Shown: piece by piece, positions 2,233-39,952 of the stretch | Layout of the letters: each line of letters opens with the position of its first letter | Numbering within the stretch: position 1 is the first letter of the stretch | Assembly: GCA_009781765.1 (NCBI GenBank) | Contig: WQVC01000001.1 | Coordinates: 14,774-78,773, forward strand | From: Defluviitaleaceae bacterium | Lineage (GTDB): Bacteria > Bacillota > Clostridia > Lachnospirales > WQUN01 | Length of the DNA: 64,000 bases | Direction of reading: 5' to 3' | The notes under the pieces: generated by a model | The model's input: only the letters and a program-made list of their open reading frames with translations | Database searches by the model: none | What the model was told of the DNA's origin: nothing | Made by a program: the position numbers and the translations under genes

Positions 2233-2836
2233 TTGCGCTGACCGACAAAAGCCCGATTGCCGGCAAATAAAATATCCAAATCAGCATGAACACGCCGGAA
2301 AAATATTGCGGCAAGCCCACGTAATGTGACAAATTGTAAAGCCCGACGCTTATGTCACAAAGCGCGAACAAAACAAGCCCCGTCGTTATAATTCGCCGAC
2401 GGGCTTTTATATTTACATACAAATTGACGGCAAAAAGTGTCGCGTAAAGCCCCGCAAGCACGACGACGGATTCTGCCGCAAATGCGATTACCCACACGAT
2501 AGCGGCAACGCAAAAAAACGCGGCAAGCAACTTATTTCCGGAAAGAAAAGAACGCTCCGCCGTCCCGGCTCCGAGAGCATGTGTCGCAATCGGCTCTTGC
2601 CCCCGGTATTCACAGCACGCTTGACGCGCCCGAATGATGTAAAACACGTGTACAAAACAAAACACAGCCACACCTTCGAGATGCCTGTTGTGCAAAACCA
2701 AAAAATAATCCGCCCAAAGAGTAAAAAAGAGGCCGCATGAAAGCAGCCCCCAATCTTTTACTGAAACGCATCTCGCTCGCGATAACAGCGCGATGATAAA
2801 ACAACACGCGACAAACGCGAATTTGTATTCCGTCAT
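2183..2836 (-). CDS. YhhN-like (lysoplasmalogenase family) membrane protein
   Basis: 217 aa polytopic membrane ORF with WADYFLVL and FALCDISVGL motifs that resemble the two YhhN signature regions. Its start overlaps the stop of the upstream gene (ATGA). Confidence 0.5.
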   Translation of the reverse strand: MTEYKFAFVACCFIIALLSRARCVSVKDWGLLSCGLFFTLWADYFLVLHNRHLEGVAVFCFVHVFYIIRARQACCEYRGQEPIATHALGAGTAERSFLSGNKLLAAFFCVAAIVWVIAFAAESVVVLAGLYATLFAVNLYVNIKARRRIITTGLVLFALCDISVGLYNLSHYVGLPQYFSGVFMLIWIFYLPAIGLLSVSAISGTPKIYSQENLSAR

Positions 2837-5229: not shown

Positions 5230-7104
5230 TTATAAAAAACGCGACGGTTTAACGGGCTTGTCGTAGCGTGTTTTTATTGCGGACAAATAGAGTTCTTTTT
5301 TGGCGCGGGTTGCGCCGACGTAAAACAGGCGGCGTTCTTCCTCAATTTCGGAATCGGTTTTGCTTCGAATGTAGGGCAAAACGTCCTCGACCGCGCCTGC
5401 AATGAACACGCGCTCAAACTCCAACCCCTTCGCACTGTGAAGGGTTGTAAGTGTGCAACACGGACCGGTTTTATCCCGCGTTTTAGCGGATTCCGCAACG
5501 GTTTTTGCGTGTGCGATAAATTCGCCGGCTGTTGCAAACTCCTTCGCCGCTTCCTGCAATTCGTCGGCGATTTCAAAAAGCCCCGCAGGATTCAGTTTTC
5601 TGTACTCGCATGTGTCGATTATATACCCATTATACCCTATATTTGCGCGAATGTAACGCACTTGTTCATCCGGACTGTGTTTCGCCAGACGAATAAGGTC
5701 GCCGTGAAGCTCCTCGATTGTCGTTTTGGTGGCGAAATGCAGGGCGGGGTCGCTCTTGTACGCCGAAAAAATGTTTTTGTCGTCGCGTCGTGCGGCTTGC
5801 AAAAATACTTTGCTCACAAACCGAAACGGTTTGTTTATTATTCGTGCCGCGTCTGCATCGAAGCCGGTTTTTTGCCGAAGTTCGAGCCGCCGCGCAACTC
5901 GCATGTACGCGAAAAAATCTTCCGCAAGCCAGTGTTCGTAAATTGTCGGGGCTTCGTCGCGGCTTTTGAAGGGGATGTGCAGGTTTAAAAATGCGTCCGT
6001 AAATGCCCGCGCCTGTATGTTCAAACGAAACGCAACCGCGATTTCATCCAAATTCGCGCCGCTTTTCCAAAGGTCGCGAATTTGACGCGCAATTTCTGCG
6101 GCTTCGCGGTTTTGGTCGTCGTAAGTGGTGAACACCGGCGGAGTGCCGCTTTTTTCCGTGCCGCGAATATTTTTATTGTACCGCGATTTGTTGGCGGAAA
6201 TCAAATTATTGGAGTATTTGATGATTTCATCGGTGGAGCGGTAGTTTATGTCCAACGTGATTTTACTCGTTTCGGGAAAATCCTTGGGGAAGTTAAGCAA
6301 AAATTCCGGCCGTGACCCGCGAAAACGGTAAATACTTTGGTCGTCGTCGCCCACCACGAACAGGTTGTTTTCCGGCGCGGCAAGTAACTTCACCGTTTCA
6401 AATTGTACGCGATTTATATCTTGAAACTCGTCTATCATTATAAAGGGATATTTTTCGCGCCAGTAATTCAGCTCGGCATCGTTGCTTTTAAGTAATTCGT
6501 AGGTTTTGCACAACATGTCGTCGAAATCAATTTTATTTTTTGAGGTCTTGTATTTTTCAAACTGTCGGCACACTGCAACAAAATCATCCGCACCGATTGT
6601 TTTCGAATAATAATCTTTCAAATCGTGTAACTCGTTGCGAACAAGAGACATTTCCGACAGCAACGACGACAGTGTATCATCATCCGGTTCGTATCGCAAT
6701 TCCGCCAAAAAACCGCGCACAACGCCGCGCCTTTCACCCTCCGCAAGAATTTGCTCGGTGGTGAAGCCGGTTTTGCGCCGAAGCATTCGAAAAAACGCAG
6801 AGTGAAACGTACCGAAAGCCGGCGGTGGTGCGCCAAGGACGCCGGGGGCAAGAATCGGGGGCGGCACATGCTCTCGAAGCCGGGGGTCGAAAGCGGATTG
6901 TGCGACTCGTTTGTATCGTTTTTCCATTTCCGTTGCGGCGGCCTTCGAATAAGTAATGACCAACACGCCGCGCGGCTGCAACGACGCCAAAAACGCCGCA
7001 CGTGCCGTAATAACAGCGGTTTTTCCGCTTCCCGGTCCTGCGAGCACCATCATTGGCCCTGCAACATGCCGCGCCGCCGCAAGTTGATTATCGTTTAGAT
7101 TCAT
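5230..7104 (-). CDS. UvrD/REP-family ATP-dependent DNA helicase (short, ~625 aa)
   Basis: Walker A AGPGSGKT, DEFQD motif II, VGDDDQSIYRFRG, C-terminal TLHSAKGLEFERVF and YVGATRAKKEL. The ORF-track start at 7131 is TTG, so I prefer the ATG at 7104 (MNLNDNQL). Confidence 0.85.
   Translation of the reverse strand: MNLNDNQLAAARHVAGPMMVLAGPGSGKTAVITARAAFLASLQPRGVLVITYSKAAATEMEKRYKRVAQSAFDPRLREHVPPPILAPGVLGAPPPAFGTFHSAFFRMLRRKTGFTTEQILAEGERRGVVRGFLAELRYEPDDDTLSSLLSEMSLVRNELHDLKDYYSKTIGADDFVAVCRQFEKYKTSKNKIDFDDMLCKTYELLKSNDAELNYWREKYPFIMIDEFQDINRVQFETVKLLAAPENNLFVVGDDDQSIYRFRGSRPEFLLNFPKDFPETSKITLDINYRSTDEIIKYSNNLISANKSRYNKNIRGTEKSGTPPVFTTYDDQNREAAEIARQIRDLWKSGANLDEIAVAFRLNIQARAFTDAFLNLHIPFKSRDEAPTIYEHWLAEDFFAYMRVARRLELRQKTGFDADAARIINKPFRFVSKVFLQAARRDDKNIFSAYKSDPALHFATKTTIEELHGDLIRLAKHSPDEQVRYIRANIGYNGYIIDTCEYRKLNPAGLFEIADELQEAAKEFATAGEFIAHAKTVAESAKTRDKTGPCCTLTTLHSAKGLEFERVFIAGAVEDVLPYIRSKTDSEIEEERRLFYVGATRAKKELYLSAIKTRYDKPVKPSRFL
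6865..6883. repeat. family E motif copy inside the helicase CDS
   Basis: CACATGCTCTCGAAGCCGG, translated on the minus strand as PRLREHV. Confidence 0.55.
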
Positions 7105-12689: not shown

Positions 12690-13783
12690 ATTCCGCCGGA
12701 GATTTTATTCGCAACGGCGGACTTGTTGTGTTTCCGACGGAAACGGTTTACGGACTCGGCGCGGACGCTTTTAATCCTGACGCTGTTGCGAAAATTTACG
12801 CCGCGAAGGGTCGCCCCGGCGACAACCCGCTTATTTTGCATATCGCAAATGCGGGCGATTTTTCGCGCCTTGCGCACGAACCGCCGGATTACGCCTTTGC
12901 ACTTATCGAAAATTTTTGGCCGGGGCCGCTCACGCTTGTTGTGCGCAAAAATCCGACATTGCCGGCATGGCTCGGCGGGCATCCGAGCGGCACGACCGAA
13001 ACCGTCGGTATACGAATGCCGGCGCATCCCGTTGCGAGGGCGTTAATCGAAGCGTCGGGTTGTGCGATTGCCGCGCCGAGCGCAAACAAAGCCGGCAAAC
13101 CGAGCCCGACGAGCCTCGCGCACGTACTCGAAGATTATAATGAAGCCGAACGCAACGGCATTTTTTTTCTTGATGACTCCGAGCGAAACGACGAATTTAT
13201 CGGGCTTGAATCGACAGTCATTGATGCTACGGGCGACAAGCCCGTTATTTTGCGTCACGGCGGCATTACGGCAGAAGAAATTCTATCGGTAACCAACCGG
13301 CTGCCAACAGAAACAGCGAACGCTTCCCGTTGCGCAATAGCAACAGTGAGCGAAGCGAACGCTTCCCGTTGCGCAACAGAATTTGAACCGGCGCGAAAAT
13401 CCCCGGAAAATCCCCGTTCCCCCGGAATGAAATACAAACACTACGCACCGCGCGCGGAAATGACGATACTTTCGGGTCGGCCGGAAAAAATCGCGGAGTA
13501 TATCTCAAACGTCGGGGCGGGAAAAATCGGCGCGTTGGTAAGCGCGGAAACAGCGACGCATCTCCCCTGCCCTGCTCCGCCGAATTTGAAAATTCTCCCG
13601 CTCGGCGACGACGCGAGCGGCGATAAAAAAATCATAGCGCGAAACCTTTTCGCTAATTTGCGAAAATTTGACAGCCTCGGTGTTGATATAATTTTCGCCG
13701 AAGCCGTTTGCGAAAGCGGAATCGGCGCGGCAATAACGGACAGAATGCGCAAAGCCGCAGAGGGGCGCGCAGTAAGCGTCTGA
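12671..13783 (+). CDS. tsaC: L-threonylcarbamoyladenylate synthase (Sua5/YwlC type)
   Basis: YrdC-domain motif [40 protein letters not shown], and a C-terminal Sua5 domain. Confidence 0.88.
13283..13377. repeat. family B element, copy B1 (in frame inside tsaC, partly duplicated)
   Basis: CTATCGGTAACCAACCGGCTGCCAACAGAAACAG..CGAACGCTTCCCGTTGCGCAA occurs twice. It is the reverse complement of 29490-29559. Confidence 0.85.
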
Positions 13784-18285: not shown

Positions 18286-19424
18286 AAATATTAACAGCCA
18301 TGAGCGGCGGAGTAGATTCATCGGTGGCGGCGCATTTGCTCAAAGCGGACGGACACGAACTCATCGGCGCAATGATGCGTTTTTTTGATGCCGGGGACAT
18401 AGCCGGGAACACATATGAGGCTTTTCAACATTCTCTCGAAGCCGTGACAGGTGCATCTGCCGGGCAAAAATTACACGTGTCGGGTGTTGCGCCGCGTTCC
18501 TGCTGCACGCTTTCCGATGCCGAAGACGCGCGCGCCGTCGCAAATGCATTGGATATTCCGTTTTACGTGTTCAATTTTTCGGAAAATTTCGCCGAAGCCG
18601 TTATGAACAAATTTGTTCGCGCATATCTCGCAGGTACAACGCCGAACCCATGCATCGACTGCAATCGCTTTTTAAAGTTCGAAAAATTTCTGCATCGCGC
18701 AACAGAGCTTGATTGCGACAAAATCGCGACCGGGCATTATGCGCGAATTTCTGCCGACGCGAACGGTCGATTTCTTCTGCGTACCGGCGCGGACACAACA
18801 AAAGACCAAAGCTATGTTCTGTACGCAATGACGCAAGCCCAACTTTCACGCACGATTTTCCCCCTCGGCGAATTAAAAAAGGAAGAGGCTCGCGAAATCG
18901 CGCAAAAAATGGGCTTCGTCAACGCGCAAAAACGTGACAGCCAAGACATATGTTTCGCTCCGGACGGCGATTACGCCGGGTTTATTCGGCAGCGAACCGG
19001 CGCAACAAAAAAAGGCCGCTTCATCGACAGAAGCGGCAAAATTTTGGGCGAACATAAAGGCATCGTACATTACACAATCGGGCAACGCAAAGGCTTGGGC
19101 ATATCCGCGCCCGAGCCGCTTTTCGTGCTTGCGGTAAATGCCGACGATAACACCGTCACCCTCGGCGCAAACGAAGACCTTTTTACAAGAAAGCTCACCG
19201 CCCGCGACGTAAATTTTATTCCTTTCGACAGGCTCGACAGCCCGCTTCGCGCGACGGCGAAAATTCGTTATGCCCACGCACCCCAACCCGCAACAATTTT
19301 TCAAACCGCTCCCGACGAAATTGTTTGCGAATTCGAGCAACCGCAACGCGCAATCACGCCGGGGCAGGCCGTTGTTTTTTACGACGGCGACATTGTTATC
19401 GGCGGCGCAACCATACTCGGATAG
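18282..19424 (+). CDS. mnmA: tRNA 2-thiouridine(34) synthase
   Basis: AMSGGVDSSVAA PP-loop, NPCIDCNRFLKF, GHYAR, and KDQSYVLY. The GTG start overlaps the ddh stop. Confidence 0.92.
   Translation: MKILTAMSGGVDSSVAAHLLKADGHELIGAMMRFFDAGDIAGNTYEAFQHSLEAVTGASAGQKLHVSGVAPRSCCTLSDAEDARAVANALDIPFYVFNFSENFAEAVMNKFVRAYLAGTTPNPCIDCNRFLKFEKFLHRATELDCDKIATGHYARISADANGRFLLRTGADTTKDQSYVLYAMTQAQLSRTIFPLGELKKEEAREIAQKMGFVNAQKRDSQDICFAPDGDYAGFIRQRTGATKKGRFIDRSGKILGEHKGIVHYTIGQRKGLGISAPEPLFVLAVNADDNTVTLGANEDLFTRKLTARDVNFIPFDRLDSPLRATAKIRYAHAPQPATIFQTAPDEIVCEFEQPQRAITPGQAVVFYDGDIVIGGATILG
18428..18444. repeat. family E motif copy inside mnmA
   Basis: ACATTCTCTCGAAGCCG, translated as QHSLEAV. It lies within an apparent ~25-30 aa extra segment. 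Confidence 0.55.
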
Positions 19425-20377: not shown

Positions 20378-20630
20378 GGGGGGCGTCGCCCCCTCTCACG
20401 CGCTGCGCGCGTTGGCCGGGCGGCCTCGCTGACGCGACCCGACTTCGCCGGGGGACAGCCCAAGCCCCCACCCGCTTTTTAAAGGGTGGCGCGGGAAACG
20501 TTCGCTTCGCTCACTGCGCCCTCTAAAAGCGGGGCAAAAATTATTAAAAAATCGCGCAAAGCGCGATTTTAATAAAGTTTTTGTCGAACTTTTTTCAAAA
20601 AGTTCGTGGGGTGCGGGGCGAAGCCCTGCG
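20378..20630. repeat. composite palindromic element A3 (family A modules plus family B core)
   Basis: GGGGGGCGTCGCCCCC, ACGCGCTGCGCGCGT, GGGAAACGTTCGCTTCGCTCACTG (B core), AATCGCGCAAAGCGCGATT, CGAACTTTTTTCAAAAAGTTCG. Confidence 0.85.
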
Positions 20631-24039: not shown

Positions 24040-24058
24040 TTGAAAGGAAGTTGCAATC

Positions 24059-27000
24059 GTGCAAATTCAATTTATTCTCGGCGGTCCCGGAACGGGAAAA
24101 TCTACATATGTTTTGCAGGAAATGTGTCGCGCGGTGCAATCGGATTTCGCCGCGCCGTTGTATTATCTTGTTCCCGAGCAGTTTTCGTTGCAGTCGGAAC
24201 GGCTTTTGCTCGAAGCGGAAAACGGTCGTGCGGCAACAACTCGCGTGCAGGTGCTGAGCTTTAATCGGCTCGCGCATCGGCTTTTTTCCGTACTCGGCGG
24301 TTTGCCGGGAAAACACGCCGACGATTTGGGCAAACAAATGCTTCTTCGCAAAGTTATTTTCGAGGTGGCGGGCGAAACGGAATTTTACAAAAGCGCGACG
24401 GACAAGCAGGGTTTTGTTTCGGAACTCGGCAGAACAATCACGGAGCTGAACCATTATCGCGTGAGCGCGGCGGATTTGCGCGACCGCGCGGCGGACTCGA
24501 CTCCGGCGTTTGCGGCAAAATTACGCGATATTGCCACGATTTTACAAAAATATCGCGAGGCCGTTACCGGGCGGCACATTCTCACCGACGACATGCCGGA
24601 AATCCTTTGCAACAGGCTTGCCGAGCTGCCCCCCGGCGAAAGTTTTCCGCTTTTGGACGGCGCGATGTTTTGGATTGACGGATTTTCCGGCTTCACCCCG
24701 CAAGAGCGACACGTTTTGCAACACATTTTAAAACGCGCCGAAAAAATCACTCTGACGCTCACCCTCAAAGATGAAATCTCCCGCGCACCGCGCGACACAA
24801 TCGAAAAAATCGAGACATTCGCACATTCCCTCCGCGCGCAAATTCTCCCGCACATACACATGAAGGAAAATTTTCGCCACGTAAACGCGCCGGGGCTTCG
24901 ATATTTTGTTAATAATTTTGGGCTTCGCCCCCCGCACCCCAATATCCCCTTGACCCCTACAGAGAAACCGCGCGAAGCGCGGTTTCTCAATAAAAGTTTT
25001 TTTGAAGGGGGCTTGGGGGAAACTTTTTTTTCAAAAAAAGTTTCCCCCAAAGAAAACATAGAAATCATATCATCAGCGGATAAATACGGCGGAGTTTATG
25101 CGGCCGCGCACAGTGTTTTGCGGCTGCGGGAGAAAGGTTATCGTTTCAGAGACATTGCGATTTTGTGCGGCGACCGCGAGCAATATGAAAAAATTTTGCA
25201 AACTGTTTTCGACCGCGAAAAAATTCCCGTTTTCGTTGATACGGAAATTGATATTTTGTCGCATCCGCTTACCGAATTGATTCGTGCCGCGCTGGATATT
25301 TTTGTGAAAAATTGGAGCATCGAAAGCGTGTTTCGCTTTTTAAAAACGGGGCTTGCCGGCGCAGACAGGGATACCATTGATATTTTAGAAAATTACGCGC
25401 TTGCAAACGGCATAAACTCGTATCGGTGGCGATACGAATTCCACGACGAAATTGCCGAAGCCGGGCGCGAAATACTGCTTCGCGGGCTTGCGCCGCTTAC
25501 ATCGAAAAAACCAAATCAATCGGTAGAGCAGTTACCAATTGAAAGCGATTCCCGCAGCGCGATTGGTTTTTGCAAATCTTCCGACACGGTTAAAAATTAC
25601 TCGAAACGTGTTTTTGATATGCTGTTCGGGCTGAATGTTCCCGAAACTTTGCAAAGTTGGTTCGACACGCACATGCTTTCCGGCGACCCGCAAACAGCGC
25701 GTATTCACGGGCAAATTTGGCCGAAAATTTGCGAGGTCTTTGATAAATTGGTCGAAATTTTGGGCGACGAAAAAGTCGAGCTGAAAACTTTTGCGGCAAC
25801 CCTCGACGCAGGATTTGTACAAGTCGGGTTGGGGCGTATTCCGCCGACCCTTGACCAAGTTGTTTTAGGCGATATTGCGCGTTCGCGTTATCCGCAAATC
25901 AAGGCGATGATTGTGCTTGGCGCGAACGACGGCGTTTTGCTGCCCACGCCGACACAATCCGGATTGTTCACCGACCACGAACGCAAATTGCTGAACAATT
26001 CCGGGATAAATGCTAAACCCGGTCGATTTGAAGTCGCGCCGGAAAACGCCGTTCGAATCAGCGAGCAAACATATAATTTGTTCTGCGCGCTTTCGCAACC
26101 GAGCGAAAAACTCATCTTGATTTACTCGGCGGGCGAAGCCGGAAAACCGTTGCGCCCGTCGCCGATTGTAAAGAAAATTCAAGCGTTGTTCCCGGGGCTT
26201 GAAACAACGCCCGCTCCCCTCCCCTCCGAGGACGCGGCCGATATGAGCGTGTTTTTCGCGCCGGTGAGGCTGTCGTCGCCTAACACCGCCGGAAGCACAA
26301 TTTTCACCGCCGCAACGCGCCTCGAAGCCTTTGCGCGTTGTCCGTTTGCGTACTATATGGATTATCTTTTGCGCGTTCGTCCGCGAAAATATTTTGAAGT
26401 TTTGCCGGCCGACCTCGGCAAACTCTTTCACGAGGTCATTGCAGATTTCACGAAACGTGGAAATTTCGACGCAACGCGGGACGAAATTAACGCCGAAGTT
26501 AATGCTCTTGTTGACGCGCTCGACCTCGAAAATTCGATTTTTTACAGCTCGGCGCGAAACAAATATGTATTGGATAAAGTGCGGCGCGTTGCGGCAGCGT
26601 CGTGTCACGCGCTTTGTCGCCAAATAAAAAACGGGCAGTATCGCCCGGGAATGACAGAACAGGAAATTTTGCACAACATCGCCCTCAACGACGGACGAAT
26701 GCTGTCGCTTTCCGGCCGCGTTGACCGCGTGGATTTTTCCGACACAAATCAAATTCGCATAGTGGATTACAAATCCGGCGCGACGAAATTTTCCCCCGAC
26801 GAAGCGTTAAAAGGCGTACAATTGCAGCTCGTTTTGTACATGAACGCGCTTTTAAAATCGCGCCCGAACAGCACGCCCGGCGGAATTTTTTATTTCCCGG
26901 TCGGCGACCCGATTATCGACACGAACGAAATTCTGCCCGACGTAATGCGCGAGGATGCCATTTTCAAAGCGTTTAAAATGTCCGGCATGGAAGCCGACGA

Positions 27001-27184: not shown

Positions 27185-28432
27185 CTACAAAGCCGACGCA
27201 TTAACGTTTCGACGTGCGCGTTCGATGATTTCGTTAAGAACAAACGCCGCGATAACAAGCGCGATAATTGCCGGGAAAAATGCGTCGAGCGAGATATTTT
27301 CTAAAATTTGACCGATTGCAAGCGAGCCGAGTGCCGCACCTGCGCCGGCAGCCGCGACCTGCATTCCGACTAACTTTGACAGCATGGCGGGGTCGAAGCG
27401 ACGCTTTGTTTCGTTCATAAGGCAGGGAAAAATCGGCGCGAATCCGAATCCCACAAGCGCGATGCCGATAATATTGCTTGTAAAAATCAGCGCGACCAAA
27501 CCGACGCCGGCAATAAAAAATCCCGTGCGAATCACGGTTATGCCCGAAAATTTCTCAGTTATGTATCCGAAAATAAATCGCCCCGCCATTAACGCGCCGA
27601 GATACACCGCAGGAAAAAGCCCCGCCGTTTCAAACACAACGTCGCGTCGTGCGCTGTTTAACAAAACGTCAACCGTCCAAATTGTCACGGACGATTCAAA
27701 CGCTACATAGACAAAAAAGACCAAAAATTGCAAATACTGAAACCGACGCGCGGTAATAAACGAGACTTCGCCGCCGGCCGAATTTTGTTCGGCTTCCGGG
27801 GGATGCGCTTCCGAATTTTGTTCGGCTTCGAGGGAATGTGCCGCTTTCGACTCTTGCCCCCGGCTATCACCGCGCGCTTGGCGCGCATCCCAGAGTCCGC
27901 GCAAAATACTTATCAAGAGGATGAGCAAAATCAAAAACTGCACCGCGAAAATCGCTGCGTAGCCCGTTCGCCAGTCATAGTAAATTATCATTTGACGCAT
28001 AATGAGCGGGCTTATTGCGCCGCCCATTGCCCAAAAACAATGCAGATGATTCATGTGTCGTGCGGAAAATCGGCTCACAACAAGAGCGTTCGCGCCCGCG
28101 TCAACAAGGCTTGCGCCCGCGCCGAGCAGCGAGGTGGATACAAGCATTCCCGCCAAATTCGGCGAAATTATATAGCCCGCAATGCCCGCCATCAGCATGA
28201 AAAAACCGCCGCCGGTAACCCATTTCAGCCGCAAAAACTTTTCAAGCCGCCCCGCTTGCGACGCCGCAAGCGCGTAACTCAAAGAGTTTACAATCATTAT
28301 CGCCGACGCTTGTCCGCGCGAAAGTCCCATATCAAAACGAATGCCGGGTAACGCAACGCCAAACGCCTCGGGCATACCGATTGCGAAAAACGCCGCGTAC
28401 GCGGCAAGCAGCAAAAACCAAGATTTTTTCAT
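27185..28432 (-). CDS. MFS transporter
   Basis: 415 aa, 12 predicted hydrophobic segments in two halves separated by a charged central loop. Confidence 0.8.
   Translation of the reverse strand: MKKSWFLLLAAYAAFFAIGMPEAFGVALPGIRFDMGLSRGQASAIMIVNSLSYALAASQAGRLEKFLRLKWVTGGGFFMLMAGIAGYIISPNLAGMLVSTSLLGAGASLVDAGANALVVSRFSARHMNHLHCFWAMGGAISPLIMRQMIIYYDWRTGYAAIFAVQFLILLILLISILRGLWDARQARGDSRGQESKAAHSLEAEQNSEAHPPEAEQNSAGGEVSFITARRFQYLQFLVFFVYVAFESSVTIWTVDVLLNSARRDVVFETAGLFPAVYLGALMAGRFIFGYITEKFSGITVIRTGFFIAGVGLVALIFTSNIIGIALVGFGFAPIFPCLMNETKRRFDPAMLSKLVGMQVAAAGAGAALGSLAIGQILENISLDAFFPAIIALVIAAFVLNEIIERARRNVNASAL
27778..27840. repeat. 33-nt tandem duplication plus family E motif in the MFS central loop
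   Basis: CCGAATTTTGTTCGGCTTC occurs twice, and the second copy runs into CGGCTTCGAGGGAATGTG. The peptide is HSLEAEQNSEAHPPEAEQNS. Confidence 0.8.
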
Positions 28433-28511: not shown

Positions 28512-28622
28512 GGCGACCTCTGAAAACCCATCTTTTCGCATATTTCGCTTCTCGGAAAATGGCTTGAAGCCGCCGGTTTTCTGCGATGCGACACAGCTCA
28601 AAGTGGGTTTTCGGAGGTCGCC
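28512..28622. repeat. family C TIR element, copy C2 (abuts the divIVA-like stop)
   Basis: TIRs GGCGACCTCTGAAAACCCA / TGGGTTTTCGGAGGTCGCC. The core matches C1 (TTTTCGCATAT..CTCGGAAAA..CCGCCGGTTTTCTGCGATGCGACACAGCT). Confidence 0.85.
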
Positions 28623-32066: not shown

Positions 32067-32074
32067 TTGACCTT

Positions 32075-32155
32075 GGGGGAGAAACTTTTTTGTAAAAAAA
32101 GTTTCTCCCTCTCTTTTTCAAAAAATTTTAAAAAGCCGCGCTTTGCGCGGTTTTT
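32075..32155. repeat. family A element, short copy A6 (intergenic)
   Basis: GGGGGAGAAACTTTTTTGTAAAAAAAGTTTCTCCC and AAAAGCCGCGCTTTGCGCGGTTTTT. Confidence 0.8.
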
Positions 32156-32171
32156 CTGTAGGGATGGAAAC

Positions 32172-33005
32172 ATGGCGATTGATGCGAAATATTCGGGTGA
32201 CGTTGATATAATCATGTCGCATCGGTATGATTTGGGCGCGGATTATTGGACGACGCCGGATAAACGGTTAGCCAAGGGTTCGCCGTTTTCGTGCATGTGC
32301 AGTGCGTATATGTTATCGGAATTGGGCATGGAGTCGTCCGACCCTGTTTTGTCGGCGGTTGCGGAATTGTTTTTCACCACGTGGCAGAATGACGGTCGCT
32401 TCAAGTTGTATCCGAGCGGCGGAATTTTGCCGTGTCACACGGCGTATGCCGCCGATTTAATGTGTCGCATGGGTTACGTTGACGACGAACGCATTCAAAC
32501 AACTTTGCGACATTTTCTCGACACGCCCTATGCGGACGGCGGATGGCGGTGCAATAAATTTTCGTTCGGCAGAGGTCCGGAAACAGATTACTCAAACCCA
32601 CTCCCTACGCTGAACGCGCTTGACGCTTTTCGGCACAGCCGGTACTTGAACAACGAGCCTAAATTGGACAAAGCCGTTGAATTTTTGCTTGCTCATTGGA
32701 CGATTCGGACGCCGATAGGCCCGTGTCAATACGGCATGGGAACGCGATTTATGCAGGTGGAATATCCGTTGTGGAGTTATAATTTGTTTCAATATGTCTA
32801 TGTTCTGTCGTTTTACAATCGCGCCAAACGCGACGAACGATTTTTGGAGGCTCTTAGTGCGTTGCAATCCAAACTCATCGACGGGATGATTGTCGTTGAG
32901 CGAATTGTGCCGAAACTTTCGAAATTGAGCTTTTGCAAAAAAGGTCGGCCGAGCGAGCTTGCGACCGAGCGATACCGTGAAATTTCGGAGAATATAAAGC
33001 ATTGA
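32172..33005 (+). CDS. hypothetical protein, possibly prenyltransferase/terpene-cyclase-like alpha-alpha toroid repeat
   Basis: I moved the start to the ATG at 32172 because the upstream part of the ORF is repeat A6. The DGGWRC and WQNDGRF motifs give only weak family evidence. Confidence 0.4.
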   Translation: MAIDAKYSGDVDIIMSHRYDLGADYWTTPDKRLAKGSPFSCMCSAYMLSELGMESSDPVLSAVAELFFTTWQNDGRFKLYPSGGILPCHTAYAADLMCRMGYVDDERIQTTLRHFLDTPYADGGWRCNKFSFGRGPETDYSNPLPTLNALDAFRHSRYLNNEPKLDKAVEFLLAHWTIRTPIGPCQYGMGTRFMQVEYPLWSYNLFQYVYVLSFYNRAKRDERFLEALSALQSKLIDGMIVVERIVPKLSKLSFCKKGRPSELATERYREISENIKH

Positions 33006-34396
33006 GTGCGGTAAACATCCCCGACTATGCGGCAAAAATTATCGCTGCCCTGACCGCCGCCGGACACGAGGCGTTTATCGTAGGCGGGTGTGTGCGCGAT
33101 ATGATTCGCGGCGCAACCCCCGGCGACTGGGACATTGCAACATCAGCCCGACCCGACGAGGTTAAGGGCTTGTTTTCGCGTACATTTGACACCGGAATCA
33201 AGCACGGCACAGTATCGGTGTTGTGCGGCTCGAACGTTTGCGAAGTTACAACGTATCGCATTGACGGCGAATATTCCGACAATCGGCGTCCGGCAACGGT
33301 GACTTTCGCCGGAAAAATCGAGGAAGATTTAAGCCGCCGCGACTTTACAATTAACGCAATCGCGTACAATCCGACGCGCGGATTTGTTGACCCCTTCGAC
33401 GGACGCGGCGATATTTCGCGGAAAATTATAAAATGCGTCGGCGACGCGGAAACACGCTTCGGTGAAGACGCGCTGCGAATGCTTCGGGCGATTCGATTCG
33501 CGGCGGTACTGGGGTTTTGCGTGAATTCCGACGCCGTGCGGGCAATTACGAAACTGCGCGACAATCTCGCCGATATAAGCGGGGAGCGTATTCGCGAGGA
33601 ACTGTGCAAGCTCCTTTGCGGCGCACACCCCGATGCGGCGAAATTATTGCGCGAAACCGGTATTATGCGCCAAGTTTTGCGCGGGCGCGATTTCGGCGGA
33701 AATTTGGATGAGGTAGTTTCGCGATTGCAGGTGCTTTCCGGGGGACTCTGTCCCCCGAACCCCCTGCAAGGGGGGATAACACCCCCCCTTGACCCCCGAA
33801 ATGAAAAACCGCGCGAAGCGCGGTTTTTCGAAGGGGCGCGAGAGGCTTTTCCGCAGCCCGGGAAGCGGTATACGGCTTCGAGAGAATGTGTCGCAAGCTG
33901 TACGTGCAGCCGTGCAGCGGGAAGCGTTCGCTTCGCTCACTGCTGCTATCGGTGTTCAGTCTCCCCCAAAGGGACGTTGTCAAAAGCACTTGCGTTATTT
34001 TTTGCGTGGGCGGACGATGAGTGCGAGTATGTTTTGCGCGACTTGCGGTTCGACAATAAAACGATTCGGACAGTTTCACGATTCGTGCAAAATCGCGCGC
34101 TTCCCGGGTCGCGATATGAAATAAAGAAGTTAATGCGAATTTTTCCCCCGGACGAATTTGAGGATTGGTTGCATTTGCAGGAAATTTCTCAAAAGCGTTG
34201 TTTTGAAAAAATTCGCGCGGAAGCGGCGGATATTTTGACGCGGGGCGAGTGTTTTACTTTGCGCGGGCTTGCCGTAAACGGCAACGACCTCGCCGAAGTC
34301 GGCATAACCGGCAAAGCGGCGGGCGAGGCATTGGAGAAATTTTTGGACGCGGTTATGCGCGACCCGCAAATGAACGTGAAGGAGCGGCTGTTATGA
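33002..34396 (+). CDS. cca: CCA-adding tRNA nucleotidyltransferase with ~80 aa repeat-derived insert
   Basis: GGCVRDMIRG, DWDIAT, RRDFTINAIAY, and EDALRMLRAIRF motifs. Confidence 0.88.
   Translation: MSAVNIPDYAAKIIAALTAAGHEAFIVGGCVRDMIRGATPGDWDIATSARPDEVKGLFSRTFDTGIKHGTVSVLCGSNVCEVTTYRIDGEYSDNRRPATVTFAGKIEEDLSRRDFTINAIAYNPTRGFVDPFDGRGDISRKIIKCVGDAETRFGEDALRMLRAIRFAAVLGFCVNSDAVRAITKLRDNLADISGERIREELCKLLCGAHPDAAKLLRETGIMRQVLRGRDFGGNLDEVVSRLQVLSGGLCPPNPLQGGITPPLDPRNEKPREARFFEGAREAFPQPGKRYTASRECVASCTCSRAAGSVRFAHCCYRCSVSPKGTLSKALALFFAWADDECEYVLRDLRFDNKTIRTVSRFVQNRALPGSRYEIKKLMRIFPPDEFEDWLHLQEISQKRCFEKIRAEAADILTRGECFTLRGLAVNGNDLAEVGITGKAAGEALEKFLDAVMRDPQMNVKERLL
33740..33976. repeat. composite element A7 (family A hairpins plus E motif plus B core) in frame inside cca
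   Basis: GGGGGACTCTGTCCCCC, GGGGGGATAACACCCCCC, AAAACCGCGCGAAGCGCGGTTTTT, CGGCTTCGAGAGAATGTG, GGGAAGCGTTCGCTTCGCTCACTG. Confidence 0.85.
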
Positions 34397-34758
34397 GCAA
34401 CGTCGCGGCGGGGATTTTGGGTCAAAATGAGGCGGAAAAATTTCTTCGCGCCAAAGGGCTTGAAATTTTGTGCAGGAATTATCGTGTTCGTTCCGGCGAA
34501 ATTGATTTGATTTGCCGCGACGGCGGTGTAATTATTTTCGCGGAAGTGAAATTTCGCAGAGGCGTGGGGTTCGGGACGCCCGGCGAGGCGGTCGGCTACA
34601 CAAAGCAGCAAAAAATCATTCGCACCGCGATGCATTACATCGCCGCGACAGGTTCGGACGAAAACGATTTTCGCTTCGACGTAATCGAGGTGCGCGAGGA
34701 GCGAGGTCGAATGCACGTCAATCAAATCGAAAACGCATTTTGGGGGGAGTTACGATGA
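34393..34758 (+). CDS. yraN: YraN family (UPF0102) endonuclease-like protein
   Basis: GEIDLICRDGGVIIFAEVKFRR motif. The start ATG overlaps the cca stop (ATGA). Confidence 0.8.
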   Translation: MSNVAAGILGQNEAEKFLRAKGLEILCRNYRVRSGEIDLICRDGGVIIFAEVKFRRGVGFGTPGEAVGYTKQQKIIRTAMHYIAATGSDENDFRFDVIEVREERGRMHVNQIENAFWGELR

Positions 34759-36101
34759 AAAAAAATTCGCGGCATATAATTGAAATCACCGGCGTGACGG
34801 AAAAGGGCTTCGGAGTGGGCGGTGACGGTTTTGTCGTTTTTGTTGATGGCGCATTGCCCGGTGAAAAGGTCGATACGCTGATTGTAAAAGTGAAAAAAAA
34901 TTACGCTTACGGAAAAGTTATGCAAATTGTAAAACCTTCCCCGTTTCGTGTAAAAAATGCATGTTTTGCCGCAGAAAAATGCGGCGGCTGTCAATTTCAA
35001 CACTGCGAATATTCCGCGCAGCTCGGGTTCAAGAAGCAGTTTGTTGTCAACGCGCTTGAAAAAATCGGAGGGTTTCATGCGCCGCCGGTTGCGGATGTAA
35101 TCGGCATGGAAAATCCCGTGCGGTATCGAAACAAGGCGGTTTTTCCGGTTGTTCCGACGAAGGGCGATATCGAAATCGGCATGTACGCGCCGCGCAGCCA
35201 TCGGCTTGTTGCCGTTTCCGACTGCATGATTCAGCATGAGGCGCACGTGGGCGTTCTTGCCGCCGTGAAGAAGCACATGCGTCGCCGAAAAATTTCGGCA
35301 TACGACGAAACCTCGCACAAAGGGCTTGTGCGACATATTGTTGTGAGGACAAGCCTCGCCACGGGCGAAATTATGGTCGTGCTTGTAATCAACGGGCGAA
35401 ACATTCCCAAAGGTGCGGAGCTTGTCGAAAACTTGGTCGATGTCGGCGCAACTACGGTTCTTTTGAACAAAAATACCTCGAAAAGCAATACGATTTTTGA
35501 TTCTTCCGAGGACTCCTTCGAAATATTACACGGAACGGGCTTTATTCGCGAGAAAATCGGCGACATCGAATTTGAACTTTCCGCGCCGTCGTTTTTTCAA
35601 ATCAATCCCGTTCAGACGAAAATTTTGTACGAAACCGCAATCGCCATGGCGAAACTTGACGGCACGCAAGCCGTCGCAGACGCACATTGCGGCGTAGGCA
35701 CGGTCGCGCTTTTTGCGGCGAAGCATTCGCGCACGGTGATTGGCGTTGACATCGCGCCGTCGGCGATTCGCGATGCAAAAAAAAATGCCGCACATAACGG
35801 CATTTCGAACGCAGAATTTATTTGCGGCGCGGCAGAGGACGTAATCCCCGAGCTGATACCGGGCAAAATTCCGGATGTTATTTTTCTCGACCCGCCGCGA
35901 AAGGGCTGCGACCGCGTTCTTTTGGACGCGCTCATTGCCGCAAAGATATCACGTATCGTGTATATATCGTGCGACCCGGCAACATTCGCCCGCGATGCGA
36001 AAATTCTTGCCGCCGGCGGATACACTCTTGACGCCGTGCAACCCGTTGACATGTTTCCCTTTACCGGCAAGGTTGAAATTTGCGCGAAATTCAGCATCTA
36101 A
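34755..36101 (+). CDS. rlmD: 23S rRNA (uracil-C5)-methyltransferase, RlmD/RumA family
   Basis: TRAM-like N-terminus, Cys cluster CGGCQFQHC, DAHCGVGT SAM motif, and DPPRKGC. The start overlaps the yraN stop. Confidence 0.88.
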   Translation: MKKNSRHIIEITGVTEKGFGVGGDGFVVFVDGALPGEKVDTLIVKVKKNYAYGKVMQIVKPSPFRVKNACFAAEKCGGCQFQHCEYSAQLGFKKQFVVNALEKIGGFHAPPVADVIGMENPVRYRNKAVFPVVPTKGDIEIGMYAPRSHRLVAVSDCMIQHEAHVGVLAAVKKHMRRRKISAYDETSHKGLVRHIVVRTSLATGEIMVVLVINGRNIPKGAELVENLVDVGATTVLLNKNTSKSNTIFDSSEDSFEILHGTGFIREKIGDIEFELSAPSFFQINPVQTKILYETAIAMAKLDGTQAVADAHCGVGTVALFAAKHSRTVIGVDIAPSAIRDAKKNAAHNGISNAEFICGAAEDVIPELIPGKIPDVIFLDPPRKGCDRVLLDALIAAKISRIVYISCDPATFARDAKILAAGGYTLDAVQPVDMFPFTGKVEICAKFSI

Positions 36102-37540: not shown

Positions 37541-39952
37541 TCACGCTCTCACAAGCCGCGCTAAACCCGACATAAACTTTTTTTGCCCCGCGCCCGGAAA
37601 CTGCACGGTTACTTCATAATCCGCGCCGGCCGGCGTGATTTCAAGAACTTTGCCCACGCCGTATTTAATATGCTTCACATTGTCGCCGGCGGAAAAATCG
37701 GGCGGCGCGACTTTTGTTGAAAATGTTTTTTTTGCCGGGGGAACTTTTGAAAAAGTTCCCCCGGCGCCCCCCTCAAAACTTTTCTTGAAAGACCGCGCTT
37801 CGCGCGGTTTTTCTGCCGAAGCCGACCCGGCCGCTCCGCGATGCCCGGATTCACGGGGGGCAATGCTCCAACTTTTACCGGAAACCTCGCGAAGCGAGGT
37901 TTCCCTGAAGGGGTCAAGGGGACGAGTCCCCTTGTGGGGGTTCGGGGGCTGGTCGTCCGCCTGTCGGCGGACTGCTCGCCCATGCATCCCGGGCGAAGCC
38001 CCTGAGGCCTTAACGTTGCGAGCCTCGCCGTACATATTAACGGAAGTGATGCAAGTCGCCGGTACGTCGTCGAGAAAGCGGCTTGTTTTGTTGCGGGCGA
38101 TGTGGTCGAAGCGGCGACGCGAAATCGCGTGGGTGAGATAGAGGATTCGGCGGGCGCGAGTGAAGCCGACGTAGCATAATCGGCGTTCTTCCTCCATTTC
38201 CGAGGGAGTTTGGGCGTCGATTGAACGGGATGTGGGGAAAATATATTCCTCAAAGCCCACCATGAACACCACGTTAAATTCAAGCCCCTTCGCGCTGTGA
38301 AGGGTCATTAACGCTGCGGCGTCGGCGTTTTCGTCATAATTGTCCACGTCGGCAACGAGGGCAACATCTTCGAGAAATTTGCCCAAAGATGTGTCGTCGG
38401 ATTCGTTTTCGAAGGCGCGAGCTTTGGCGAGAAGCTCCTTGAGATTCTGCTCGCGCTCCGCGCCCTCGGGCGTACCGTCCTGAATTGTGCGGATGTAGTC
38501 GGTGTCGTGCAGAATTTTTTCGATAAGCGCGAGAACGCTGTTTTCGGCGGAAAATGCGGCGCATTCGTCCAGATATTCGGCGAATTGTTTGGCGGGCGCG
38601 GCTTTTTTGCCCAAATCGTGTATTTCGGAGGCGCGGGCAAGCGCCTGCGAGAAGGTGAGTTCGTTTTCTGCCGCGAACGCCTGAATTTTTGCGATTGACG
38701 CGCTGCCGATTCCGCGCTTCGGTACGTTTATTACGCGAAGGTGGGAAATATCGTCGGCGGGATTGTTGATTGCCTTGAGATACGCCAGCATGTCCTTGAT
38801 TTCCATGTGTTCATAGAAGCGTACACCGCTGAAAATGCGGTACGGAATGCCGCCGGTTACGAATTGGTCTTCGACGGCGCGCGACTGTGCGTTTGTTCGA
38901 TAAAGCACGGCGAAATCGCTGTAACGCGCCCCTTCGCGAATGCCGCGCGCAATCATTTGCGCAACAAAGTAGCCCTCGTCGCGCTCGTCGCGGGCGGTGT
39001 AAATGCGAATCGGGCCGCCGCGAGCATTTTCCGTCCACAAACGCTTTGCGGTTCGTTCTTCGTTATGAATAATTACGGCGTTCGCCGCGTCGAGAATTGT
39101 TGAGGTTGAACGATAATTTTGCTCCAATTTGATTACTTTCGCGCCGGGATAATCCTTTTCGAATCGCAAAATATTTTTTATATCCGCGCCGCGCCAACCG
39201 TAAATACTTTGGTCGTCGTCGCCCACAACGCACAAATTTTGCGCGTAACCCGAAAGATGCCGCACAAGTTCGTATTGCGCGTGGTTTGTGTCCTGATATT
39301 CGTCAACCATTACGTAACGAAAGCGATTTTGATATTTTTCGCGTATGTGTTCGTGTTGGGCGAAGAGTTCGGCAGTTTTGAAAATAATGTCGTCGAAGTC
39401 GAGGGCATTGCTGTTTTTCAGGCGTTTTTGATAAAGCGCGTAAACGTCGGCGATATTGCTTTCGCGAAAACTTCCCGCGACCATGCGTTCGTATTCCGCC
39501 GGCGAAATCAGCTCGTTTTTCTGCGCCGAAATTACTTGCGCAACATATCGCGGCGGATAATTTGTATCGCTCAAATTTTGCTCTTTGATGCATTCTTTTA
39601 TGAGACGCAGAGTGTCGGCTGTGTCATAAATCGAAAAGCCCGTTTTGTAGCCCAAATATTCAATTTCGCGCCGCAAAATTCGCGTACACGCCGCGTGAAA
39701 CGTGCTTACCCACACCTGCTCGCCGAGCGACGTTTTCGCGCTGATTCGCTCGCGCATTTCCCGCGCCGCCTTGTTCGTAAAGGTAATCGCAATAATATGA
39801 TACGGGTCAACCCCCGTTTCAATCAGCCGCGCAACACGATATGTAAGCACGCGCGTTTTTCCGCTGCCCGCCCCCGCGAAAATTAACAGCGGCCCTTCAA
39901 GATGCATTGCCGCCTCACGTTGGGCGGGATTAAGCTCGTCCAAATAATTCAT
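37541..39952 (-). CDS. pcrA: ATP-dependent DNA helicase PcrA with ~80-95 aa repeat-derived insert before the C-terminal domain
   Basis: LNPAQREAA, AGAGSGKT, DEYQDTN, VGDDDQSIYGWRGA, TLHSAKGLEF, and YVGFTRAR. I moved the start to the ATG at 39952. Confidence 0.92.
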   Translation of the reverse strand: MNYLDELNPAQREAAMHLEGPLLIFAGAGSGKTRVLTYRVARLIETGVDPYHIIAITFTNKAAREMRERISAKTSLGEQVWVSTFHAACTRILRREIEYLGYKTGFSIYDTADTLRLIKECIKEQNLSDTNYPPRYVAQVISAQKNELISPAEYERMVAGSFRESNIADVYALYQKRLKNSNALDFDDIIFKTAELFAQHEHIREKYQNRFRYVMVDEYQDTNHAQYELVRHLSGYAQNLCVVGDDDQSIYGWRGADIKNILRFEKDYPGAKVIKLEQNYRSTSTILDAANAVIIHNEERTAKRLWTENARGGPIRIYTARDERDEGYFVAQMIARGIREGARYSDFAVLYRTNAQSRAVEDQFVTGGIPYRIFSGVRFYEHMEIKDMLAYLKAINNPADDISHLRVINVPKRGIGSASIAKIQAFAAENELTFSQALARASEIHDLGKKAAPAKQFAEYLDECAAFSAENSVLALIEKILHDTDYIRTIQDGTPEGAEREQNLKELLAKARAFENESDDTSLGKFLEDVALVADVDNYDENADAAALMTLHSAKGLEFNVVFMVGFEEYIFPTSRSIDAQTPSEMEEERRLCYVGFTRARRILYLTHAISRRRFDHIARNKTSRFLDDVPATCITSVNMYGEARNVKASGASPGMHGRAVRRQADDQPPNPHKGTRPLDPFRETSLREVSGKSWSIAPRESGHRGAAGSASAEKPREARSFKKSFEGGAGGTFSKVPPAKKTFSTKVAPPDFSAGDNVKHIKYGVGKVLEITPAGADYEVTVQFPGAGQKKFMSGLARLVRA
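37733..37971. repeat. family A composite element A8, in frame inside pcrA
   Basis: GGGGGAACTTTTGAAAAAGTTCCCCC, GACCGCGCTTCGCGCGGTT, GGAAACCTCGCGAAGCGAGGTTTCC, GGGGACGAGTCCCC, GTCCGCCTGTCGGCGGAC. Confidence 0.85.

Follow-up and report, generated by a model that had tools for sequence, protein, structure and literature searches.

An in-frame insert composed of hairpin-forming interspersed repeats in the cca gene of a termite-gut Defluviitaleaceae bacterium

The cca gene on the 64,000-nt stretch of DNA analysed here (hereafter the window) contains an in-frame insert that is very probably a mosaic of non-coding, hairpin-forming interspersed repeats, which entered the gene at the DNA level and are neutral, or nearly so, for their host. 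Such an insert would have survived because its length is a multiple of three, because it contains no in-frame stop codon, and because it lies in a surface loop that follows the neck domain of the enzyme; it would be translated as a 79-residue disordered excursion.

The cca gene and its insert

33002..34396, + strand: cca gene, predicted class II CCA-adding enzyme, an uninterrupted 464-aa ORF that hosts the insert
33740..33976, + strand: whole in-frame cca insert, 237 nt or 79 codons (amino acids 247-325), delimited by protein and DNA alignments

By its sequence and predicted fold, the host protein is a class II CCA-adding enzyme. The Pfam profiles PolyA_pol (residues 24-143, 2e-35) and PolyA_pol_RNAbd (residues 171-227) match its N-terminal part, and a tRNA_NucTran2_2 match at residues 331-463 reaches 22.4 bits, which is under the Pfam cutoff of 27 bits. 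A sequence search of the PDB returned 1miv (1.5e-59), and the best Foldseek matches of the structural model are full-length bacterial CCA-adding enzymes (TM 0.80-0.83). The GGxVRD, DxD, RRD and EDxxR motifs, spotted by eye in the translation, are located in invariant columns of the family alignment.

Homologues were aligned in two sets, first of 19 and then of 117 sequences. P0002, the closest relative (395 aa, 75% identity), has some 12 residues at the position of the insert, and P0004 and P0007 (386 and 385 aa) have none, so that the segment 33740-33976 is to be regarded, on the alignments, as an insertion relative to its homologues. The length of 385 aa that an earlier note on this DNA had calculated for the enzyme after removal of the insert agrees with the 385-386 aa of the relatives that lack it. 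The status as an insertion derives from homology and not from the junctions, because even the nearest orthologues that lack the insert have diverged too far; neither a target-site duplication nor a clean empty site was definable against them.

The insert has a G+C content of 62%, compared with 49% in the window, and the RNA folded from it reaches -120 kcal/mol (z = -5.6). A further candidate property, an unusual openness of the insert in each of the six reading frames, was rejected: two of the six are open, about 10% of shuffled sequences do equally well, and the cca flanks are similar. In a BLAST comparison of the insert with the window, almost the whole of 33741-33949 had matches elsewhere; only the final ~27 nt (33950-33976) had none. 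Together with the alignments, the repeat counts in the window bear out the earlier description of the segment as an in-frame composite of three repeat families, about 79 aa long, between the head and neck and the C-terminal part of the enzyme.

The modules of the insert

33740..33764, + strand: module H1a, hairpin GGGGGAC-TCT-GTCCCCC with a GAACCCCC tail, peptide GGLCPPNP (DNA fold)
33770..33797, + strand: module H1b, hairpin GGGGGGATAACACCCCCC with CTTGACCCCC, peptide GGITPPLDP (recurring CCCCTTGACCCC)
33803..33829, + strand: module H2, GAAAAACCGCGC-GAA-GCGCGGTTTTTC, a 12-bp hairpin with A-run and T-run, peptide EKPREARFF (copies, covariation and fold)
33835..33912, + strand: E-family unit (diverged), core CGGCTTCGAGAGAATGTG at 33873-33890, peptide YTASRECVAS (repeat match)
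33913..33949, + strand: B-family unit, core GGGAAGCGTTCGCTTCGCTCACTG inside an outer stem GCAGC/GCTGC (four copies, stem covariation)

All motifs quoted in the earlier note were found where it had placed them, among them GGGGGACTCTGTCCCCC at 33740-33756, GGGGGGATAACACCCCCC at 33770-33787 and GGGAAGCGTTCGCTTCGCTCACTG at 33919-33942. The DNA of 33738-33800 folds with z = -5.1, and the CCCCGAACCCC motif of H1a recurs 11 times. The CCCCTTGACCCC sequence of H1b is also present at 23942, at 24946 (AddB) and at 37910 (PcrA), each time with an H2 hairpin following it. Since the block CCCCTTGACCCC-N6-H2 is repeated as a whole in AddB, in PcrA and at one intergenic site, the two G5...C5 hairpins and the CCGCGC hairpin did not arrive independently of one another.

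At 33803-33829, H2 is arranged as A-run/CCGCGC-GAA-GCGCGG/T-run (-14.9 kcal/mol, z = -4.7), and we read this sequence as terminator-like in form. A simple terminator scan left H2 unflagged, probably because its stem absorbs the T-run. The T-runs of the intragenic H2 copies are not clearly weaker than those of the intergenic ones, and we make no claim of selection against termination. What had been described as an E motif is present; it forms the 5' arm of a hairpin that belongs to a longer E unit (~33835-33912). The full 90-nt E unit was defined from copies in the related metagenome-assembled genome (MAG) L001; the repeat match covers 33835-33896 and runs along 80-17, minus strand (74% over 65 nt), and the diverged cca unit has a weak fold when taken alone (z = -1.4). 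The B core, likewise present, sits within a stem of its own (33914-33918 paired with 33942-33946), and the B unit folds with z = -2.2.

The module families are represented in the window by 4 to 12 copies each, compared with 0 to 0.06 from shuffled sequences. The H2 hairpin has 7 matches at three or fewer mismatches (0 expected), the B core 4 (0 expected) and the E core 8 (0.06 expected). Across the 12 copies of H2 in the window, four of which lie within genes, 94% of the cells are paired, and compensatory double changes occur in 6 of 12 pairs, a result equalled by none of 500 shuffles. The outer stem of B varies among its copies yet stays complementary, with double changes in three of five pairs (8 of 500 shuffles), a comparison of only four copies. 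Judged from these copies, the hairpins are kept by compensatory changes. With many dispersed copies and a conserved stem-loop potential, the modules are interspersed palindromic repeats. Both strands of two families are translated, E as ...ASRECV... or ...HSLEA..., and B as ...GSVRFAH... or ...ANASRC...; this speaks for a DNA element rather than a protein module.

A GTAG/CGTC tag lies within 8 nt of a module end in 1 of 33 copies, against a background of 19%. Pfam searches of about 30 larger ORFs of the window revealed no transposase and no RAYT, Rfam at the gathering threshold reported two tRNAs in the whole window and no family for the insert, and neither the B nor the E core had an exact counterpart in viral contigs, which gave no sign of a phage-borne parent. 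Intergenic composites of ~145 nt are symmetric (H1-H3-H2-H3'-H1') and resemble terminal inverted repeats (TIRs).

Copies of the modules elsewhere in the window

24945..25059, + strand: PLDP-H2-H3 modules in frame in an AddB-like gene (24059-27163), peptide IPLTPTEKPREARFLNKSFFEGGLGETFFSKKVSPK
37723..37949, - strand: H1b, two H2-type hairpins and H3, in frame in the PcrA C-terminal linker (gene 37541-39952)
13283..13372, - strand: B-family unit, one full and one partial copy, in frame in Sua5 (gene 12671-13783, +), read on the opposite strand
27821..27886, + strand: in-frame E-family unit, read antisense as ARQARGDSRGQESKAAHSLEAE, central loop of an MFS transporter (gene 27185-28432, -)
2564..2629, + strand: E-family unit in frame in a membrane-protein ORF (2183-2836, -)
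6841..6884, - strand: in-frame E-family core, read in the sense direction as PRLREHVPP, UvrD-like helicase gene (5230-7131, -)
18427..18444, - strand: E-family core in frame, QHSLEAV, in MnmA (18282-19424, +)
20470..20535, + strand: B unit between genes, nested in an H3-type hairpin loop (CCCGCTTTTT...AAAAGCGGG)

Of the 44 genes called in the window, 7 carry modules in frame; these lie in linkers or loops, and both orientations occur. Those of the AddB-like protein lie just past the ADDB_N domain (5-281), those of PcrA between UvrD_C and the Tudor domain, and the Sua5 unit, which is missing in the closest Sua5 relatives (P0122 and P0123), in the linker from YrdC to Sua5_C. The PcrA linker is ~45 aa longer than that of the orthologue in the related MAG L003, where only an H1-type segment stands. 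In MnmA, the HUP domain match comprises 226 residues against a profile stretch of 200 positions. Among 240 homologues checked, the module peptides were found only in the window's own cca and Sua5 proteins. The intergenic segment 20470-20535 folds as a single long hairpin with B at its apex (z = -2.95), and the uninterrupted form of its H3-type hairpin is present at 50944-50965.

Growth of the mosaic in related genomes

The module families are common to related termite-gut Defluviitaleaceae MAGs and missing in more distant ones. L003 carries a partial insert, with GGGGGCGCTGCCCCCAATCCCTC at the same nucleotide position of cca as H1a. The gene next to cca, which encodes a methyltransferase, contains a 116-aa mosaic in the related MAG L001/L002, and the two assemblies differ in it by one versus three E units, a difference that could reflect an assembly collapse of the 90-nt tandem units. 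At the methyltransferase sites the unit is bounded at both ends by a hairpin copy, and no target duplication was definable there. A length difference in the SMC gene of L001 and L002 had also been considered as a repeat indel and was rejected; the alignment is gapless across the gene, and the difference appears to stem from the start-codon call.

We infer that the cca mosaic grew stepwise. This is supported by the partial insert of L003 and by the nesting of B in an H3 loop, and also by the 116-aa mosaic and the one-versus-three difference in the methyltransferase gene. The ancestor shared with the L003 and L001 lineages probably already had an H1-type hairpin, since the cca inserts of the window, L003 and L001 all begin with GGGGG... 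at the same position. The lineage of the window would later have gained the H1b-H2 block, the E unit and the B unit, possibly because existing hairpins attract more modules, which nest into loops, abut and amplify in tandem. Alternatively, the mosaic may have been pre-assembled elsewhere in the genome, 64 kb of whose sequence was examined here, and inserted into cca once. The nested or serial insertion that had been proposed from the sequence thus remains probable, given the partial version in L003 and the module nesting elsewhere in the window. The same proposal had called such an event unusual; this applies in general and not within the lineage, in which 7 of 44 genes in one window have modules and a related MAG contains the 116-aa mosaic, and published precedents exist as well (see below).

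The insert as part of the protein

In the AlphaFold model, residues 249-320 have pLDDT values of 29-43, below 50 throughout, and the 79-residue insert is thus predicted to be a disordered loop, the kind of excursion that had been anticipated. An exhaustive HMMER search with the insert peptide produced no match in 1.84 billion (1.84e9) protein representatives, and a word-index protein search yielded no candidates, although the parent protein was likewise missed by it. On the HMMER result the identification of the insert as a protein domain was rejected, its peptide matching no known protein among these representatives.

The insert might nevertheless be an acquired or exapted functional module, such as a Cys-rich metal-binding or regulatory loop that alters tRNA handling. 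The Cys-rich run noted earlier is indeed present in the uninterrupted ORF, with seven Cys within 25 residues, the insert is located in the half of the enzyme that binds tRNA, and four relatives (P0003, P0036, P0046 and P0008) have inserts at the same site. These inserts share no peptide similarity, however, and the Cys codons derive from repeat DNA that is also intergenic and that is read on the other strand in Sua5. In conjunction with the low pLDDT and the lack of homologues among the searched representatives, this makes a functional module very unlikely.

Function of the host gene and integrity of the assembly

Under the preferred reading of the insert as a repeat mosaic, the cca mRNA would gain strong local structure, including a terminator-shaped hairpin, and this may cost some expression. 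One could go further and consider the gene a decaying or non-functional copy, with the true enzyme encoded elsewhere: the hairpin could truncate transcripts, and a paralogue is possible in a genome of which 64 kb has been seen. We consider this highly unlikely, since the 464-codon ORF is intact, the catalytic motifs and all 55 columns that are invariant across 118 homologues are retained on both sides of the insert, the synteny with the UPF0102 and methyltransferase genes is conserved, and several other single-copy housekeeping genes carry similar inserts. A gene for an H+-PPase is a further neighbour of cca on the contig. Outside residues 249-320 the enzyme is modelled with pLDDT values of 96-98, and it presumably still works with its 79-residue insert.

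The contig derives from a metagenome, and the modules are short repeats of the type that confuses assemblers; the assemblies L001 and L002 illustrate that such repeats can be assembled differently. A chimeric or expanded join inside cca is nonetheless extremely unlikely, as the same gene continues on both flanks, in frame and with all family-invariant residues, as every module is shorter than a typical read, and as repeat-derived inserts occupy this site, and also neighbouring genes, in related MAGs that come from other assemblies. In addition, a second deposited assembly (ENA ERZ27257300, an 84,860-nt contig) shows 100% identity across 22,235 nt that include the insert, although the two assemblies may derive from the same reads. 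When the cca protein was scanned against genome and metagenome contigs, the contig of P0003 alone was returned, and no closer strains.

Removal of the segment after transcription or translation, as an intron, an intein or by ribosomal bypass, is hardly credible despite its strong RNA structure, because Rfam reports no intron or other family at threshold, because 79 aa are too short for an intein and have no intein-like homologues, and because a segment that is removed need not be in frame and stop-free. An identity as a known structured RNA or intron was rejected for want of any match at the Rfam gathering score, a search of 32000-36000 by E-value having given weak sub-threshold matches only.

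Comparison with known interspersed repeats

Among known systems, the Rickettsia palindromic elements and the intragenic REP clusters come closest. The Rickettsia palindromic elements (RPEs; Ogata et al. 2000, 2002), according to PMC10969869 and PMC3733652, are palindromic repeats of ~150 bp that occur in intergenic regions and in frame in unrelated housekeeping genes, where they encode recurring peptides at fold-compatible positions, and they are regarded there as selfish DNA filtered by selection. The modules of the window are likened to RPEs here in behaviour only, being both intergenic and in frame in unrelated genes at fold-compatible sites. Their hosts are termite-gut Defluviitaleaceae (Firmicutes) instead of obligate intracellular alpha-proteobacteria, their sequence families are presumably unrelated, the modules are smaller (20-90 nt), several families are combined into mosaics at one site, and many modules have A-run and T-run flanks like those of intrinsic terminators. 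Their density also appears to be higher, with 7 of 44 genes in a single 64-kb window versus the 44 integrations into genes that PMC10969869 cites for R. conorii.

Intragenic GTAG/CGTC REPs were surveyed by Di Nocera et al. (2013, PMC3733652). They are stem-loops of 20-40 bp, rich in G+C and often present as dimers or groups, which lie within ORFs in flexible linkers; many reside in replication and repair genes, and their clusters encode up to 43-82 aa. Firmicutes are absent from that survey. The modules described here share with these REPs the grouping of G+C-rich stem-loops, the position in linkers and a presence in repair and replication genes (AddB, PcrA, UvrD-like), and the 79-aa cca insert falls inside their known size range. 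They differ in the missing GTAG/CGTC tag, in the lack of a RAYT among the ~30 ORFs scanned, and in the mixing of several unrelated hairpin families within one insert.

Enterobacterial BIMEs are mosaics of short palindromic units and linkers whose order varies at one locus; they are built from REPs, linked to RAYTs and by definition extragenic. The mosaic architecture found here is like theirs, but it extends into coding sequence.

SPRITE of Streptococcus pneumoniae, listed in PMC10969869 along with other terminator-like repeats of that species, is described as an intergenic element. It shares with H2 and H3 the Firmicute host and the shape of a Rho-independent terminator (a G+C stem with a T-run after it); neither in-frame insertion into coding sequence nor a mosaic of several families features in the description given there.

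Significance

The best-documented cases in which selfish palindromic DNA has settled in frame in essential genes come from Rickettsia and a small number of Gram-negative lineages. The case of a gut-symbiotic Firmicute extends this phenomenon to presumably unrelated, untagged hairpin families, to multi-family mosaics and to visible nesting, and possibly also to copy-number polymorphism between near-identical genomes. It is conceivable, if rather doubtful, that this Defluviitaleaceae clade harbours an unusually active set of RAYT-independent, terminator-shaped modules that insert, nest and amplify in coding sequences at a density well above that in Rickettsia (about one in six genes in this window), and that would be a major ongoing source of disordered linkers and loops in core proteins. 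The core proteins named in this connection are the CCA enzyme, AddB, PcrA, Sua5, and rRNA and tRNA modification enzymes.

In annotations of MAGs from this lineage, the inserts make proteins seem longer and give rise to spurious 'novel regions'. The related genomes preserve stages that range from no insert through a short remnant and a partial insert to the full mosaic; hence, the movement and growth of such elements, and the origin of disordered loops from non-coding DNA, become testable.

An in-frame insertion in the CCA-adding enzyme gene

The cca ORF at 33002-34396 (+) is uninterrupted over its 464 codons, and a PDB sequence search with its product hits the CCA-adding enzyme of Bacillus stearothermophilus (1.5e-59). 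The following domains were assigned by Pfam:

Residues 24-143: poly(A) polymerase/CCA head domain
Residues 171-227: RNA-binding neck
Residues 331-463: tRNA_NucTran2_2 (weaker; 22.4 bits, under the 27-bit cutoff)

Residues ~245-330 find no match in Pfam or in the PDB sequence search. The earlier note had described positions 33740-33976 as an in-frame insert, and the homologue alignments (20, then 118 sequences) agree, with residues ~247-325 standing opposite gaps rather than opposite conserved CCA-enzyme sequence. The homologues P0004 (386 aa) and P0007 (385 aa) have zero residues at this site, P0002 (395 aa, 75% identical to the window protein) has ~12, and P0003 (421 aa) has ~35. To either side of the insert, the window protein retains all 55 columns invariant across the 118 homologues. 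The G+C content of the insert is 62% vs 49% for the window. The organism has another deposited assembly (ENA ERZ27257300, contig of 84,860 nt), which agrees at every base over a 22,235-nt stretch that includes the insert. The nearest homologues are CCA enzymes from Defluviitaleaceae MAGs, and the related contigs originate in higher-termite gut metagenomes (MAG survey PMC7024585).

AlphaFold2 modelling, proposed in the earlier note and run with 118 sequences, gave a mean pLDDT of 86.9; values are 96-98 throughout except for residues 249-320 (29-43), which lack any secondary structure in the model and are flanked by helices 235-245 and 325-333. Foldseek groups the model with class II CCA enzymes of bacteria, compared over their full length (target-normalised TM 0.80-0.83).

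Many other Defluviitaleaceae CCA enzymes (P0059, P0052, P0024, P0088, P0100, P0032) carry long lineage-specific inserts or extensions of 20-60 aa elsewhere in the protein, unlike the G+C-rich hairpin peptides of the window. In the 542-aa relative P0037, the CCA enzyme is fused to a downstream UPF0102 (YraN-like) domain (PF02021); in the window, the cca and UPF0102 genes overlap by 4 nt (34393-34396).

Anatomy of the insert

From 5' to 3', the insert consists of these units, every one of which is a hairpin, and a tail:

H1a: GGGGGAC-TCT-GTCCCCC + GAACCCCC
H1b: GGGGGGATAACACCCCCC + CTTGACCCCC
H2: GAAAAACCGCGC-GAA-GCGCGGTTTTTC
~33835-33912: diverged E unit
33913-33949: B unit
Last 27 nt: tail, without a match elsewhere in the window

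For the insert as a whole, the folding energy is -120 kcal/mol (z = -5.6 vs dinucleotide shuffles); folded separately, H1a/H1b reach z = -5.1 and H2 z = -4.7. Nearly all of 33741-33949 has BLAST matches in the window. The five sequences quoted by the earlier note lie where it had placed them, and its three repeat families each recur far above the shuffle expectation: the 64-kb window holds seven matches to the A-run/CCGCGC/T-run hairpin and four to GGGAAGCGTTCGCTTCGCTCACTG (0 expected for each), and eight to CGGCTTCGAGAGAATGTG (0.06 expected). The H2 stem is paired in 94% of cells across 13 copies, with compensatory double changes at 6 of 12 pairs, a level reached by 0/500 shuffles; slid controls collapse. 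Among four copies of B the core is invariant, and the 5-bp outer stem varies while staying complementary (GCAGC/GCTGC, GGCGC/GCGCC, GCAAC/GTTGC). The full E unit, defined on clean copies in a related genome, measures 90 nt: a GCGCGC-TTG-GCGCGC hairpin with T-run, a spacer, and a 13-bp hairpin, the 5' arm of which is the "E motif" of the earlier note.

This anatomy corrects the earlier reading on one point. AddB, PcrA and one intergenic site each contain the block CCCCTTGACCCC-N6-H2 as a whole; hence the "family A" pieces (H1a, H1b and H2) make up a single composite and did not arrive separately. The Cys-rich run of the protein is a by-product of the translation of the E and B units. The observation itself is confirmed, and its interpretation, so corrected, is supported.

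At 33725-33769, native TTGCAGG codons upstream of the insert are complementary to CCTGCAA inside it, so that H1a is enclosed by a larger 7-bp outer stem that is partly host sequence; the complementarity could be fortuitous, or it might point to how targets are chosen.

Order of events

Compared as DNA, the three closest genomes (the window and the related-MAG contigs L003 and L001) share the starting point of the variable cca segment, which follows ...CTT and opens with GGGGG:

Window: GGGGGACTCTGTCCCCCGAACCCCC
L003: GGGGGCGCTGCCCCCAATCCCTC, further on ...CCCCCTTGACCCC
L001: GGGGGCTCCG...

The simplest reading of these sequences is that an old H1-type insertion would have come first, followed by lineage-specific growth in the window and L003 and by decay in L001. 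Modules do insert into each other, as at 20470-20535, where an H3-type hairpin has a B unit in its loop; this hairpin occurs uninterrupted at 50944, and the 20470-20535 region folds into a single long hairpin. Such nesting, together with tandem E units, supports accretion at existing hairpins; alternatively, the mosaic may have been pre-assembled elsewhere in the genome and inserted once.

The same modules in other genes and between genes

When repeat matches were marked on long ORFs, seven further ORFs were found to contain in-frame module-derived peptides:

AddB: ...EKPREARFLNKSFFEGGLGETFF...
PcrA: PPNPHKGTRPLDPFRETSLREVSG...EKPREARSFKKSFEGG...
Sua5: 21 residues
MFS transporter: ARQARGDSRGQESKAAHSLEAE
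Membrane ORF: ARQACCEYRGQEPIATHALGAG
UvrD-like helicase: PRLREHVPP
MnmA: QHSLEAV

These are ordinary housekeeping genes, and Pfam places the module segments in inter-domain linkers or loops. Insert status was checked against orthologues for two of the seven and confirmed for both: PcrA is ~45 aa longer than its L003 counterpart, and the Sua5 segment is missing from P0122 and P0123. For the E and B families, the strand that is read differs from gene to gene, which fits a DNA element and not a protein module. An unbiased self-BLAST of the window found interspersed repeat blocks in 7 of 44 called genes, with repeats covering 2.3% of genic vs 14.8% of non-genic bases.

Six intergenic composites of ~145 nt share the symmetric order H1-H3-H2-H3'-H1' (1669-1824, 5072-5217, 20525-20641, 23913-24045, 48118-48270, 50843-50989). 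They are palindromes built of smaller palindromes, mostly at gene junctions of a kind that would call for a bidirectional terminator. GCGC/CGCG runs make up many repeat stems. A C-5 cytosine DNA methyltransferase gene (36119-37159 (-), Pfam 2.3e-95) lies between the methyltransferase gene and PcrA; the syntenic L003 locus has a Fic gene in its place. The window also encodes a bacterial serpin (52630-54192 (-), Pfam Serpin 2.6e-72) that is extended by ~145 residues at its N-terminus, and an E-family core (52572-52589) lies just downstream.

Related genomes

The P0002 genome contains the E family (seven cores in 11.7 kb) and the P0003 genome the H1/PLDP/H2 family; no module families were found in two more distant relatives. 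In the P0002 genome, represented by the assemblies L001 and L002, the rRNA methyltransferase gene adjoining cca (L001 6065-7885; L002 5950-7950) has two in-frame repeat inserts, and both sites are empty in the window and L003. Site 1 is an in-frame mosaic of 348 nt (116 aa) composed of three E units and two other A-run/stem/T-run hairpins. At site 2, L001 has one E unit (93 nt) vs three (273 nt) in L002; the assemblies are otherwise 99.97% identical, and the difference may be a real polymorphism or an assembly collapse of tandem units. Module peptides were sought in 120 homologues each of cca and Sua5 and occur only in the window's own proteins, which indicates that these insertions are recent and lineage-specific.

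A separate repeat family

A ~110-nt repeat family distinct from the cca-insert modules is represented by five copies:

42446-42549 (+)
43975-44042 (+)
15113-15219 (-)
28512-28623 (-)
44849-44959 (-)

The core (GGCGG.TTCAGGCC.TTTTCCGAGATGCGGCATATGCGAAAG) is conserved, and the terminal arms differ wholly among copies while remaining complementary (GAGAGTGTTGAAAAA/TTTTTCAACACTCTC vs GGCGACCTCCGAAAACCC/GGGTTTTCAGAGGTCGCC). RNAalifold gives 35 pairs, seven with compensatory changes, and no Rfam family was found at threshold. It may represent a structured RNA, or else a MITE divided into TIR subfamilies.

Comparison with known systems

An intein is rejected, as the segment is too short and without homologues; the 80-residue insert peptide has 0 matches among 1.84 billion representative proteins. 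Also rejected were a known RNA family (no Rfam family at gathering score), the notion that the insert is exceptionally open in all six frames, and the GTAG/CGTC-tagged REP superfamilies, the tag being found on 1 of 33 module copies vs a 19% background. There was no transposase among the ~30 larger window ORFs scanned, and viral contigs gave zero exact matches to the B or E core.

The classic example of palindromic repeats that have become in-frame parts of unrelated genes is the Rickettsia palindromic elements (PMC10969869). Di Nocera et al. described intragenic REPs in Opitutus, Rickettsia, Xanthomonas, Thioalkalivibrio and Thauera; such repeats frequently occur in groups, replication and repair genes host many of them, their clusters encode 43-82 aa, and flexible linkers are argued to tolerate them (PMC3733652). 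The cca insert works like these elements without belonging to their families: its host phylum differs, its sequences are unrelated and untagged, its hairpins are terminator-shaped, and it mixes several families at one site. In the literature, as far as our incomplete coverage extends, we found no account of such inserts for Defluviitaleaceae or other Firmicutes. The finding would gain in interest if the density, nesting and polymorphism of the modules hold genome-wide.
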